From a virus, in the IMG/VR virus record IMGVR_UViG_3300009408_000003, positions 32,001 to 96,000 of that record: a DNA stretch of 64,000 nucleotides; one strand, written 5' to 3'. Positions 58,033 to 64,000 of the stretch are shown here, one piece after another. A model generated the notes under the pieces. That model was given only the letters and a program-made list of their open reading frames with translations, ran no database searches and was not told where the DNA came from. The translations under genes and the position numbers were made by a program. Position 1 is the first letter of the stretch. Each line of letters opens with the position of its first letter.

Positions 58033-59652
58033 TTATATTTCGATGGTTTCTATTTCCTTAATTAATTTAGTATAACCTTTAGAGTTAATTTCAATTATAT
58101 CAAATATTCTTTCAGACCATCCAGCAATTTGAGTAACGTTTAATGCTCTATTAAAGACTGATTTTCCACCGGTTGCTCGTATGTTTACTGAAACAGTATT
58201 ACATTTAGGGTTTATTAATTTAAATTTTTTAAACAATGATTGAAATGTTCCTAATCCTGCTCTTGATGAATAATCCCATCTACCTTCACCACCATGTCCA
58301 ATAACCATATCAGAAAATATAACTAAATTATCAACTTTAGTTTTATTTTTAATAACGTCACGCAAGAAGTAATACAACCCATTTTCAGTTGCTCCACCAC
58401 AATTTCTACCCATTTTAAATGAATCTCTATTATGTTCTAATAATCCTTTTGTTCTATCCATTGGTACTAATATTAATCTATCGCCAAATAATCCAACATA
58501 TACATTTTTTTGAGAATATGCTAACATTGAACCAAATAGGTTTCCAATCATTGCAGTTGTAGTTTTTGAAAATGCTGATACCTTACTTGAACCGCCACCA
58601 TCACCACGTACTGAACCGGAGTGGTCAATTAATACTGCAGTATTACCTTCTAACATTGGAATATTTTCAACTGAATATTCTAAAGCTGTTTCTAGTCCTT
58701 TCAATATTTTAGTTTTAAGTTCATCCATGTTTGGTATTGTATCGCCTTCAAACACAATTTTACTTTTGTTATATTTAGAAACCCCAACCTTTTCAATTTC
58801 AGTATATGCCGATGCAAATCTGAATGGTAATAATTTTGATTTTAATACCTTTCTTTTGTTAGTTAATTGAGATACTGCTTCATCAACTTTATTTGGAGCT
58901 AATGTTAAAATGTTTCTTAGATTTCTAACTAAATTCATCATAGGCATACCTTGTACATTTTCAATCACATTTGTAATTGCTTCTTTTTTGGTTTCCTTAA
59001 CATCTTTTCCGGTTTCTTTAGCTGTTTTACCAGCTTTAGTCATTTCTTTTTCAAAGATTTTAGATGAATATAATCCGTCTAAAGATTCGCCATTCATTAA
59101 TCTTTTGTATGCTTCCGCATTAACTTGTGTACCTTTTGGGTGCATTAAGTTAACTAAATCAACTAAAGAAATTTCTTTCTTCTCCATTTTGTATTTATCA
59201 ATTAAATATGGATCTAATGATTCCAATTTTAATTTGAATCCTCGTTTAATTGAATTAGCAATTTTTGTACTTCCTTTTGAGAAATAATAAGCTAAGATTT
59301 CACTCATATCATCTGGTCTTTGTGCGATTTTTTTATAAAATCTTGAAGCATATGATTTTCCGGATAATCTTGGTGCTAATTCTCCTGATAACAAGTGAGT
59401 AACAGAACGCATGTGTGAATCATGTCTTAAATACAATGCAAATTTAGCAACAAATTTTTCATCAACCTTTTTTATTGCTTCTTTAATTCTATTTACAATT
59501 TCATTTTCACTTTCGTAATATGAACGTTGTAAAAAGGTAGTTAAACAAGTTGCTAACAAATCTTCTTTTGCAGTTAGTTTATAAGCTTTTTCACCCATTT
59601 CATTTATAGTAGTTGGTACTACTTTTGGTTTTCTTTTGTTAAATTTTGACAT
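58033..59652 (-). CDS. TROVE-domain Ro60/Rsr-like RNA-binding protein with C-terminal vWA domain
   Basis: NEMGEKAY, FVAKFALYLR...MRSV, RPDDMSEIL, YLIDKYK, MMNLVRNLRNI, SKLLPFRFASAY, MIDAS IDHSGS, FSDM, GWSERIF. Confidence 0.9.
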   Translation of the reverse strand: MSKFNKRKPKVVPTTINEMGEKAYKLTAKEDLLATCLTTFLQRSYYESENEIVNRIKEAIKKVDEKFVAKFALYLRHDSHMRSVTHLLSGELAPRLSGKSYASRFYKKIAQRPDDMSEILAYYFSKGSTKIANSIKRGFKLKLESLDPYLIDKYKMEKKEISLVDLVNLMHPKGTQVNAEAYKRLMNGESLDGLYSSKIFEKEMTKAGKTAKETGKDVKETKKEAITNVIENVQGMPMMNLVRNLRNILTLAPNKVDEAVSQLTNKRKVLKSKLLPFRFASAYTEIEKVGVSKYNKSKIVFEGDTIPNMDELKTKILKGLETALEYSVENIPMLEGNTAVLIDHSGSVRGDGGGSSKVSAFSKTTTAMIGNLFGSMLAYSQKNVYVGLFGDRLILVPMDRTKGLLEHNRDSFKMGRNCGGATENGLYYFLRDVIKNKTKVDNLVIFSDMVIGHGGEGRWDYSSRAGLGTFQSLFKKFKLINPKCNTVSVNIRATGGKSVFNRALNVTQIAGWSERIFDIIEINSKGYTKLIKEIETIEI

Positions 59653-61309: not shown

Positions 61310-61348
61310 AAAAAAAAGGGACTAAAATTAACTAAAATTTTAATCCCC
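61310..61348 (-). terminator. Intrinsic terminator closing the tRNA/ncRNA operon
   Basis: GGGATTAAAATT/AATTTTAGTCCC stem followed by 8 U. Confidence 0.8.
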
Positions 61349-61464
61349 TATAGTTTAAACGATAATATCCGGCTTTTTAGAATTATCATGATTATTCATC
61401 ATAATTTTCACGTATTCGGTTTTATTAGATACTGGCTTTAATTATCGTTTATTTATTATAAGGG
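61346..61464 (-). ncRNA. Unknown structured small RNA (about 119 nt)
   Basis: TAAACGATAAT/ATTATCGTTTA 11-bp stem, CCCT-TATA/TATAGGG closing stem, internal ATTATGAT/ATCATGAT hairpin. Confidence 0.45.
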
Positions 61465-61523: not shown

Positions 61524-61646
61524 GGTAAGGGAATATTTAAAAGAGTGTCATTGTTTAAAAACGCAGGGTCGAATCTGCTACCTTTTATTTTGAATATAAA
61601 TGCTCTACTATGAGCTAATTTTTACGAAGTACCTCTGTTTATTACC
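61524..61646 (-). ncRNA. Y-RNA-like element containing a complete tRNA-like cloverleaf (61555-61624, anticodon position UCA)
   Basis: Acceptor TAAAAAT/GTTTTTA, D arm GCTC/GAGC, anticodon arm TTTAT-ATTCAAA-ATAAA, T arm GCAG-ATTCGACC-CTGC; flanked by GAGGTACTTCG and ACACTC. Confidence 0.6.
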
Positions 61647-62359: not shown

Positions 62360-62471
62360 AGAGTTTACTAGAGGCTATTGGGGGCTATCAGCGGAGAATA
62401 TTTTCCTCTGTTAATTCAGATTCCCAATCTTAATTTCCGTCTAATCTAGCCTTTTACGCTTGATAAACTCT
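62360..62471 (-). ncRNA. Unknown 112-nt rod-shaped RNA
   Basis: Nested stems AGAGTTTA/TAAACTCT, AGGCT/AGCCT, ATTGGG/CCCAAT and an apical GAG..CTC hairpin; GC-richer than flanks. Confidence 0.5.
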
Positions 62472-62575
62472 GTATTAAATTATAATCATGATTGTTCGGT
62501 CACAGTATGTTCTTCTAAAACTAATACCCCCTCTGTATTTTGATTATCTTTACAGATATTTTAAATAAATTTTTG

Positions 62576-62650
62576 TACTCCAGATGGGGTTCGAACCCAT
62601 AAAATTTAGTTTCTAAAACTAAAATGTCTAGCCATTTGCATCACCGGAGC
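62576..62650 (-). tRNA. tRNA-Leu (UAG) with short variable loop
   Basis: GCTCCGG/CTGGAGT, TTAGT-TTTAGAA-ACTAA, ATGGG-TTCGAAC-CCCAT; A73; no CCA. Confidence 0.85.
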
Positions 62651-62659
62651 ATATAAAAT

Positions 62660-62990
62660 AAAATGCTGAGATTACACATTTTCTGTTAATACTTTTGTTT
62701 TCGTACCGCCAAACTGCTAAGTTTTTTGTTAAAAACGTATCCACTCATAACTTATGAGTTTATCAACATTACCGCCTTTTTTAAAGAGTGGCATTTCTCT
62801 TATCATAATAGAACTACTCGATTTTTGTTTTTCTCCCAACCTTTAGAGCTGTTAGTGGTCGCTAAACCATTAGATGCAAACTCTAATCAATTATCATCCA
62901 CCTTGCGAGTTTCAGATAAACTACATTCCCGAATGGGTGTAGTATTAGGTAATTTGTTTTCTATTATTGTTAGGGTCTTTACGTTTTATC
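62660..62990 (-). ncRNA. Large structured ncRNA, GOLLD-like (short form)
   Basis: Dense hairpins (CTACA-CCC/GGG-TGTAG, C-GCAA-G tetraloop, ACTCATA/TATGAGT, TTAGAG/CTCTAA). The 3' end GTGTAATCTCAGC resembles GOLLD termini as I recall them. Lies between two tRNAs. Confidence 0.45.
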
Positions 62991-63000
62991 AATTTAATGA

Positions 63001-63074
63001 TGGGATGTATAGGGTTTGAACCTATGACACCTTGTGTTTAAAAACAAGTGCTCTACCAACTGAGCTAACTTCCC
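63001..63074 (-). tRNA. Atypical tRNA, Val-like body with 8-nt anticodon loop (UUUUAAAC)
   Basis: GGGAAGT/ACATCCC acceptor with an A-A mismatch, canonical D arm GCTC-AGTTGGTA-GAGC, CTTGT/ACAAG stem, ATAGG-TTCAAAC-CCTAT. Confidence 0.7.
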
Positions 63075-63077
63075 TAA

Positions 63078-63620
63078 AGTTAATTTTTCACTTCGATGTG
63101 CCCTAACGGTTGTTTCATACTCTTTTGAAGTACAAAATGCAACACACCAACTGTGTTTCAGATTACCAATCCTACTGTACGGTACTTCTAGTCTACACCG
63201 GAAAACAATAATGTTCCTTTCAACTATAATACTGATTAATTGCTCTAATACTGGCGGTACTTGAACTCAAAATCTACAACTTATTCTGTTTTGGTTTTAT
63301 TGAGGTAGTATCTTATAAGATAGGTACTAACCTATTTGAACTCACCGAACGGCTCTGTTCTTATCCTTTCCTAAGGGTCTTACTTTAATTCAATTTCCTA
63401 AAAAATTGAAAACTTTCAATTTACTCCATATTCACCATCGGTAATTAATGATGCCCCGTATAGGTTTACGGTTGAAATGTTGCTTGTTTAAACAAACCTA
63501 GTTATAGGCGGGTAGATGTGAATTTCTATCCCTTTCGATATCTCACGATACCATATTTTTGTCTTAACCGAAGTTAAAGTAGGATGTTAAGCCACCCTTG
63601 TATCTTTATTAATGCAGTAT
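63078..63620 (-). ncRNA. Large structured ncRNA, ROOL-like (about 540 nt)
   Basis: More than 10 hairpins and a possible TAGGTTT/AAACCTA pseudoknot. The 3' half (AATCAG..TAGTTGAAAGG..CCGGTGTAGACT..AAGTACC..GGTAATC..GAAACAC..TGGTG..CAAAAG..GCACATCG) matches ROOL RNAs as I recall them. 5' boundary approximate. Confidence 0.6.
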
Positions 63621-63809
63621 ATTCATTATTTCTTATGTAAGTACCAATGTATAAATAATTATTTGACAATTACATGAGGTTTCAATGTTTATGTCGGATA
63701 TGTACCATTATAATGATACATAATTAACATTATTAAATAAATGACTTTAATAATACATTAATGTTTTTCAATATTTTAATGAACGTATTTTTTTAATAGT
63801 TTTGTGTTA

Positions 63810-63842
63810 CAAAGATACGAAAAAATATTTAAATATCCTAAT
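63810..63842 (-). promoter_or_regulatory. Phage early/middle promoter driving the ncRNA/tRNA operon
   Basis: TTAGGA-N18-TATCTTTG. Confidence 0.7.
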
Positions 63843-63876
63843 TTTTTCTTAGTTTTTTTTAATTATTTTTAAAGTA

Positions 63877-64000
63877 TTAAATTCTACTTTTCAAAGTTGT
63901 TATCTCTGCTTCAATTCGTCTAATATCTCTATCAGATAATTTTATCATATTAGTACCATGTTTTTCTGGTTTTGTTTTACGTTTCAATTGTGACTGTAAA
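63877..64000 (-). CDS. 3' end of a hypothetical gene starting beyond the window
   Basis: Open frame ...IRRIEAEITTLKSRI* with stop at 63877-63879. Confidence 0.5.
   Translation of the reverse strand, partial: LQSQLKRKTKPEKHGTNMIKLSDRDIRRIEAEITTLKSRI

Follow-up and report, generated by a model that had tools for sequence, protein, structure and literature searches.

A structured region in a phage tRNA array is very probably the 5' domain of a GOLLD RNA that carries a tRNA-shaped insert

The GOLLD RNA family (RF02032) was reportedly described by Weinberg et al. in 2009. GOLLD RNAs are found near tRNA islands, have a linker that can hold tRNAs and form cages; of their two domains, the 3' one (P14-P27) is conserved and the 5' one less so, the Rfam model covering the 3' domain only (10.1101/2024.12.08.627333; PMC12990946). 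The published GOLLD alignment (supplement, PMC12286853) consists of matches to this model, that is 3' domains only, and is without P1-P13. Two GOLLD cages have been solved, namely the 14-mer of the 833-nt env-38 RNA (PDB 9MEE) and the 12-mer of the 700-nt Streptococcus agalactiae RNA (PDB 9L0R). Deleting the 5' domain is reported to make the stoichiometry of the S. agalactiae RNA looser. The Mycobacterium GOLLD has a pseudo-tRNA inside it, within a cluster of 32 tRNAs, and no separate pseudo-tRNA transcript was detected there (PMC6582537); in the published model, a linker tRNA is covalently attached and faces the cage interior (10.1101/2024.12.08.627333). ROOL RNAs (RF03087) are likewise large and ornate, are encoded by phages or prophages near tRNA genes and form RNA-only cages, and in this general make-up the RNA described here resembles them as well.

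The window analysed here is a stretch of 64,000 nucleotides from a 120-kb IMG/VR viral record, and the RNA in question lies on its minus strand (-). A scan of the whole window with cmscan at gathering thresholds gave a full-length match to Rfam GOLLD RF02032 at 63150-62663 (-), covering model positions 1-416 with 152.2 bits and an E-value of 1e-40; the score is barely above the gathering score of the family (150), and it is the E-value that is decisive. We consider it highly likely that the adjoining region, 63598-63151 (-), represents the 5' domain of one GOLLD RNA that is encoded by the phage, measures about 935 nt (62663..63598, -) and is made up of the 5' domain, P14, a linker with a tRNA-like insert, and the 3' domain. 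A match with the 5'-domain profile places the start of this RNA at 63597. That 63598-62663 would be one continuous RNA is something we infer from conserved co-linearity only. The sequence-only reading had drawn a separate RNA of ~540 nt at 63620-63078 and had listed the 3' domain apart as a 'short GOLLD-like' RNA. Its region does contain the 5' domain, yet the real unit is 63598-62663, and the lower 73 nt of the region (63150-63078) already belong to P14 of the Rfam GOLLD model. One GOLLD was read as two giant RNAs because the Rfam model represents the 3' domain only and because the tRNA-shaped insert breaks the match; this phage does not, therefore, combine two classes of cage-forming RNA.

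Twelve distinct relatives, found on viral, metagenome and Saprospiraceae-MAG contigs, have the same order of 5' domain, P14, tRNA-like insert and 3' domain. In L083, L021, L084, L087, L088, L093, L094, L096 and L100-L102 a single match runs from the 5' domain through the 3' end, and L083 shares 73% identity with the window across 740 nt. These loci came from several pattern searches. Conserved 3'-domain motifs retrieved 76 IMG/VR loci, among which only L021 resembled the window upstream of P14. A subfamily-specific pattern applied to metagenomes gave L083 and L084, the hairpin just 5' of P14 supplied a pattern that gave L087, L088, L093, L094, L095 and L096, and an extended pattern gave L100-L102, three contigs of Saprospiraceae MAGs. 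In all, this pattern of the hairpin just 5' of P14 (the H16/17 motif) produced 15 matches, 11 of them further loci with a full-length GOLLD. Among ~185,000 species genomes, the subfamily pattern matched only in the three Saprospiraceae (Bacteroidota) MAG contigs, which is a clue to the host of this GOLLD branch. A blastn search against 50,697 phage records matched the tRNA part only. The RNA is a new member of the GOLLD family, from a branch that is apparently tied to Saprospiraceae phages. Some pattern matches were discarded: the pattern ATCGNNAGATATNGAAAGGG gave, beyond L021, three loci (L078-L080) that were all without an Rfam match, and L081 and L085 from the metagenome scan as well as L086, L092 and L097 from the H16/17 pattern were not GOLLD.

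To follow the 5' domain outside the subfamily, we used R1, a covariance model of the core H2-H7 (128 positions) built solely from the 12 subfamily sequences. R1 gave full-length matches at 64 other GOLLD loci (E 1.5e-11 to 2.5e-5), matched only once within the window, and matched none of the eight chance pattern matches named above (L078-L080, L081, L085, L086, L092 and L097), which served as negative controls. An iterated nhmmer profile search with the 5' domain recruited the same GOLLD loci. Moreover, the 5' core was on the same strand as the 3' domain and 508-604 nt upstream of the anchor motif in 72 of 72 loci. At E<=10, R1 found nothing in Caulobacter phage phiCbK, mycobacteriophage PegLeg, Vibrio phage PG07 or S. 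agalactiae phage LYGO9. The 5' domain therefore represents the common metagenomic type while other branches differ, in keeping with the literature, and the lack of an R1 match in these four phages fits the variable nature of the GOLLD 5' domain. With regard to the surroundings of these loci, most IMG/VR GOLLD loci without an embedded tRNA (L002-L077) have a tRNA-Met ending right at the GOLLD 5' end, often after a tRNA-Pro, and embedded tRNAs occur at 10 of 64 distinct anchor-motif loci (7 from the first scan), only in groups with a 5' domain closest to that of the window. The related phage of L021 has a tmRNA gene (86.5 bits) at L021 1388-1744 (-), which equals L082 13605-13961, ~9 kb from its GOLLD. 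At L084 252-313 (-), downstream of the tRNA array of this related GOLLD locus, there is a sub-threshold match to 'freshwater-1' RNA (52 bits, the gathering score being 72).

The 5' domain (63151..63598, -) lies outside the Rfam model and comprises ~17 consensus helices and three local hairpins. It opens with the hairpin H1 (AGGGUG / CAUCCU, 63581..63598, -), in which 5 of 6 pairs show compensatory changes. Between H1 and H2 stands a UUCG-loop hairpin of variable length (CUUUAAC-UUCG-GUUAAG, 63563..63579, -); 12 of 13 sequences fold into a hairpin at this site, 3-25 bp long and in several cases with a UUCG loop. H2 is a GNRA-loop hairpin (GGUAUC-GUGA-GAUAUC, 63530..63552, -) with compensatory changes at 5 of 6 pairs; it is followed by a conserved GAAAGGG and is part of model R1. 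H4 (GCCUA / UAGGU, 63496..63509, -) forms 4-5 of its 5 pairs in 13 of 13 sequences, with CG:6/UA:4 and AU:6/UA:4 among its pairs and five pair types at the third. A long-range helix, H5 (63483-63475 with 63286-63276, -), closes a multi-branch region (63276..63483) that holds H6 (CCGUA...UACGG, 63471-63456), H7 (63453-63433), H8 (63420-63416 with 63303-63299), H9 (63376-63365), H10/11 (63360-63338) and an AUAGGU...ACCUAU hairpin (63335-63320), all on the minus strand. The stems of the last hairpin covary across 13 sequences beneath a conserved GU(A/G)G loop. Both this hairpin and the UUCG hairpin are supported, their absence from the consensus being due to alignment gaps. An extra hairpin (63389..63410, -) that folds on its own at -5.4 kcal/mol sits in a 27-nt insertion private to this phage, which is absent from 12 of 12 relatives (alignments A2 and A3). 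The consensus map continues with H12 (63274-63234, -), H13-15 (63232-63182, -) and H16/17 (63180-63153, -), the hairpin just 5' of P14; H16/17 bears the conserved ACAGUAGG motif, and near it starts the sequence conservation that is common to all GOLLD loci.

P14 (63093..63150, -) is the first helix of the Rfam model (positions 1-62, consensus helices 18-19), has the A-rich loop UUCAAAAGA at 63129-63121, and still lies within the region drawn by the sequence-only reading. The remainder of the conserved 3' domain (62663..63000, -) corresponds to Rfam positions 109-416 and terminates in GUGUAAUCUCAGC; in the Rfam alignment it includes the long-range pairing of AAUAAUAGAA with UUCUAUUAUG. A further long-range pairing, of CAC (63520-63518) with a GUG just 3' of P14, shows a single compensatory change and is tentative.

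Several observations made from the letters of the region held up. Positions 63078-63620 contain only a 33-aa ORF (+) and a 31-aa ORF (-), in agreement with the statement that there is no credible ORF. The minus strand does contain the four hairpins that were quoted, three of which covary in homologues; the one with the UUCG loop keeps its position but not its length. The region was also said to be richer in GC than its flanks, which is true relative to the upstream flank 63600-63999 (0.33-0.39 versus 0.155-0.22) but not downstream, where the tRNA and the GOLLD 3' domain are about equally GC-rich. A pseudoknot had been proposed between UAGGUUU (63500-63494, -) and an AAACCUA loop (63467-63461, -). 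These arms are complementary at 7 of 7 positions here, but only 1-5 of 7 pair in register in the 12 homologues, and the pseudoknot competes with the covarying local helix H4, of which UAGG is a part; we thus rejected it as a conserved feature.

The linker holds a tRNA-shaped insert of 74 nt (63001..63074, -), which scores 59.8 bits with the Rfam tRNA model and falls between GOLLD model positions 108 and 109. At this linker site, 15 of the 16 family sequences that were checked have a tRNA-shaped element, as does phage phiCbK, L087 being the locus at which ARAGORN calls no linker tRNA. Across 16 inserts the cloverleaf shows compensatory changes at 16 of 20 pairs. In the insert of the window, the acceptor stem contains an A.A mismatch and the anticodon loop (UUUUAAAC) has 8 nt; ARAGORN reads this insert as 'tRNA-???' or '?(Stop|Leu)(ttaa)'. 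Its discriminator base is followed by U, versus C in 30 of 30 free tRNAs of the phage as judged by their ARAGORN 3' ends (a single C in 28, and a full CCA in two tRNA-Met genes). An unpaired position in the acceptor stem is found in 14 of 16 inserts versus 4 of the 30 free tRNAs (Fisher p ~1e-6, a rough comparison, given the relatedness of the inserts). The insert probably remains tethered to the GOLLD RNA as a tRNA look-alike and is not a decoder, a reading that fits both the pseudo-tRNA of Mycobacterium (PMC6582537) and the linker tRNAs in the cage interior (10.1101/2024.12.08.627333).

These features bear on whether the RNA stays in one piece. RNase P and RNase Z might cut out or nick the insert, so that a ~510-nt piece (the region plus P14) would assemble non-covalently with a ~340-nt 3' piece. 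The insert does score as a good cloverleaf, its four stems are all under selection, the flanking tRNAs are clearly processing sites in the array, and a GOLLD 3' domain alone can assemble in vitro (PMC12990946). However, with its 8-nt loop, its acceptor mismatch and the lack of a C after the discriminator, the insert is unlike all 30 free tRNAs, and both the Mycobacterium transcripts and the published cage model mentioned above speak for a linker tRNA that is not released. We regard such a two-piece GOLLD as unlikely.

The tethered look-alike has also to be weighed against a working tRNA, of which GOLLD would be a precursor or storage form and whose 8-nt loop could read a four-base codon or the stop codon UAA. 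The ARAGORN reading with ttaa points in this direction, canonical loops do occur in some relatives (e.g. Asn GUU and Lys CUU), and the published idea of 'inhibited storage' is applicable (PMC12990946). A functional elongator tRNA, however, has a 7-nt loop with U33 and a purine at 37, and the cloverleaf here carries a loop of 8 nt. Nor do the inserts keep one anticodon matched to the tRNA body: the 16 inserts have ten readings (UUAA in the 8-nt loop here, UGA, UAG, UUU, CUU, CAG, GUU, CCA, UCC and a 6-nt loop), Leu and Ser anticodons stand on bodies with a short variable arm, and in 4 of 15 relatives the loop has A33 (two), G33 (one) or 6 nt (one). The frequent acceptor-stem mismatch also argues against a working tRNA, and the genes of the window, e.g. 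a 539-aa TROVE ORF, read normally with the standard code. A working tRNA is accordingly very improbable in our view.

If the insert is indeed a tethered mimic, its tRNA shape would be kept while the anticodon loop is free to vary, and it would be present in 12-14 copies in or on the cage. As a speculation with a low chance of being right, these copies might serve as decoys or a sponge for host defence nucleases that target tRNAs, or for other enzymes that bind tRNA, the variety of loops might reflect an arms race, and, together with the Ro60/TROVE gene and nearby tRNA-like elements, the locus might constitute an RNA-based counter-defence island. The TROVE (Ro60) domain (52.5 bits) is encoded by the 539-aa ORF at 58033-59652 (-), ~3.5 kb from the region, on the same strand and ~1.7 kb beyond the terminator-like hairpin that follows the tRNA array. 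The sequence-only reading had regarded its proximity as a functional clue. The gene is present, but the arrangement is not conserved among the relatives searched: tblastn found no TROVE gene in any fetched relative locus, nor was there one in five related GOLLD-bearing phage records, one of them 90% complete.

According to ARAGORN, the minus strand of the contig carries 31 tRNA genes, spanning window-equivalent positions 61711-73224, with 26 upstream of the GOLLD beyond the window end, one embedded in it and four downstream; a fifth downstream tRNA is an Rfam match at 61555-61624. With 26 tRNAs before it and four to five after it, the GOLLD therefore lies inside the array, near the array 3' end, and not at the head of a tRNA operon as had been supposed. 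The Mycobacterium GOLLD is likewise inside a tRNA array, near its 3' end (PMC6582537), and in this subfamily L101 has a tRNA array upstream too. A tRNA-Leu(UAG) (62575..62650, -) starts 12 nt past the GOLLD 3' end, and cutting at its 5' end probably defines that end; in L083, a tRNA ends 4 nt ahead of H1. The tRNA-Leu(UAG) has 76 nt and a 4-nt variable region, as compared with 86-87 nt (class II) for the other two tRNA-Leu genes of the phage, and it reaches a modest 47.5 bits in Rfam; it, too, may be an atypical tRNA. Further up the array, outside the window, the contig also contains an 85-nt tRNA-like gene with a 6-nt anticodon loop (103713-103797, -), which ARAGORN reports as 'tRNA-???(aa)'.

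After the last tRNA follows a terminator-like hairpin with a U run (61316..61349, -; L001 187-154, +61162), which is likely to be the end of the transcription unit. Upstream of the GOLLD, an AT-rich region (63625..63817, -) contains candidate promoter sites, sigma-70-like at 63736-63707, 63685-63658 and 63653-63625 and of the Bacteroidota type TAnnTTTG at 63817-63810 (all -). Matches of both kinds are no commoner there than expected by chance in AT-rich DNA, and we claim no promoter. Two 62-aa ORFs lie between a tRNA-Cys and the GOLLD, at 63877-64065 and 64070-64258 (-) (L001 2715-2903 and 2908-3096), and one of them has a weak match to DUF7649 (22.8 bits, under the cut-off).

With regard to the class of the RNA, the sequence-only reading was right as to kind, in that the phage encodes a large and ornate non-coding RNA within a tRNA island, and one of the class forming RNA-only cages, but not as to family. 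It had called the region ROOL and had proposed a search with the Rfam ROOL model as the check. A permissive Rfam scan of 62400-64000 (E<=10) gave only GOLLD, two tRNAs and three junk matches, and RF03087 had no match at E<=10 in this interval or in the whole 120,327-bp viral contig. This negative is meaningful because the known ROOL of plasmid pMP118 from Ligilactobacillus salivarius reaches 130.4 bits (E 1e-29) with the same model, and the ROOL assignment was thus refuted by its own test. Its size of ~540 nt, ornate look and phage tRNA context are the points in favour of ROOL, and GOLLD has all three too (PMC5737381). Conversely, R1 gave no match at the pMP118 ROOL locus at E<=10, the region is continuous with the RF02032 match and forms one domain of a 935-nt RNA, and the pseudoknot proposed for it is not conserved. 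We consider the ROOL reading as good as eliminated.

It should be underlined that the structure of the 5' domain was judged by comparison. A single-sequence fold was not significant against shuffles (z = -1.41), and the case therefore rests on the relatives. On alignment A3 (10 sequences, 5' domain plus P14), RNAalifold predicted 105 pairs, 67 of them with compensatory changes. In pair counting on the same alignment, standard pairs made up 94.5% of the cells, versus 78.5% in shuffled alignments and 37-45% when the 3' partner was slid by 1-3 columns, and 68 of the 105 pairs had changed on both sides, versus 38.9 (shuffled) and 10-23 (slid). None of 500 shuffles was as good as the observed alignment on any measure. 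Since the 10 sequences first counted were also those that had yielded the consensus structure, this structure was tested on three unused sequences, L100, L101 and L102, which are the independent ones. Of the pairs with both partners inside the 5' domain, they form 73/79, 74/80 and 73/79 (92%), versus ~40% in the slid control, and each sequence differs from the window at both partners of 26-27 pairs. These results show that ~20 helices of the 5' domain are supported by covariation, and the ORF-free, structured and hairpin-rich region is confirmed as real. Chance hairpins in a non-functional spacer, which the sequence-only reading had allowed for in case homologues showed no covariation and with which the single-sequence fold would agree, can be put aside almost entirely, given that 12 distinct relatives retain the region and that its covariation greatly exceeds that of the controls.

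By analogy with the env-38 and Streptococcus agalactiae cryo-EM structures, the GOLLD RNA would be made as part of the phage tRNA-array transcript, and cleavage of the flanking tRNAs would define the 3' end and, in some relatives, the 5' end as well. The RNA would then fold into two separate domains and self-assemble into a closed RNA-only cage of 12 to 14 copies, as in the solved relatives, with the linker, here including the tRNA-like module, pointing into the cage interior. The main value of the present work is a corrected annotation of the GOLLD locus, and a by-product is a covariation-supported map of the GOLLD 5' domain accompanied by a core model of 128 positions with which the 5' domains of most metagenomic GOLLD loci can be recognised. 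Moreover, in the branch linked to Saprospiraceae MAG contigs, the insert is retained in 15 of 16 sequences with conserved stems and a drifting anticodon loop, and this bears on what GOLLD cages hold or do.

Compared with known systems, the RNA of the window is like GOLLD in that its 3' domain scores above the gathering score, in its layout of two domains with a less conserved 5' domain, and in its A-rich P14 loop, its variable linker and its context in a phage tRNA island. ROOL, in contrast, is one intertwined fold of ~580 nt with neither a sequence nor a structure match to this RNA, of which the region is only half of a two-domain molecule. The window RNA is longer than the solved GOLLDs at ~935 nt because of the 74-nt tRNA-like insert and the 27-nt private insertion. 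It shares its 5' core with the 64 other metagenomic loci, whereas this core is not detectable in the GOLLD of S. agalactiae phage LYGO9, a relative of the solved S. agalactiae type, and the 5' regions of phiCbK and PegLeg, which R1 does not match, differ as well. As to the linker, phiCbK has a tRNA-shaped element at the same position, its annotated tRNA-Gly, and the Mycobacterium aubagnense / Mycolicibacterium GOLLD has one too; both GOLLDs lie, as here, within a large array and have tRNAs on either side (PMC6582537; PMC12990946). The insert of the window differs from those of phiCbK and Mycobacterium in its anticodon loop of 8 nt, and its subfamily apparently belongs to Saprospiraceae (Bacteroidota) and not, like theirs, to Alphaproteobacteria or Actinomycetota.
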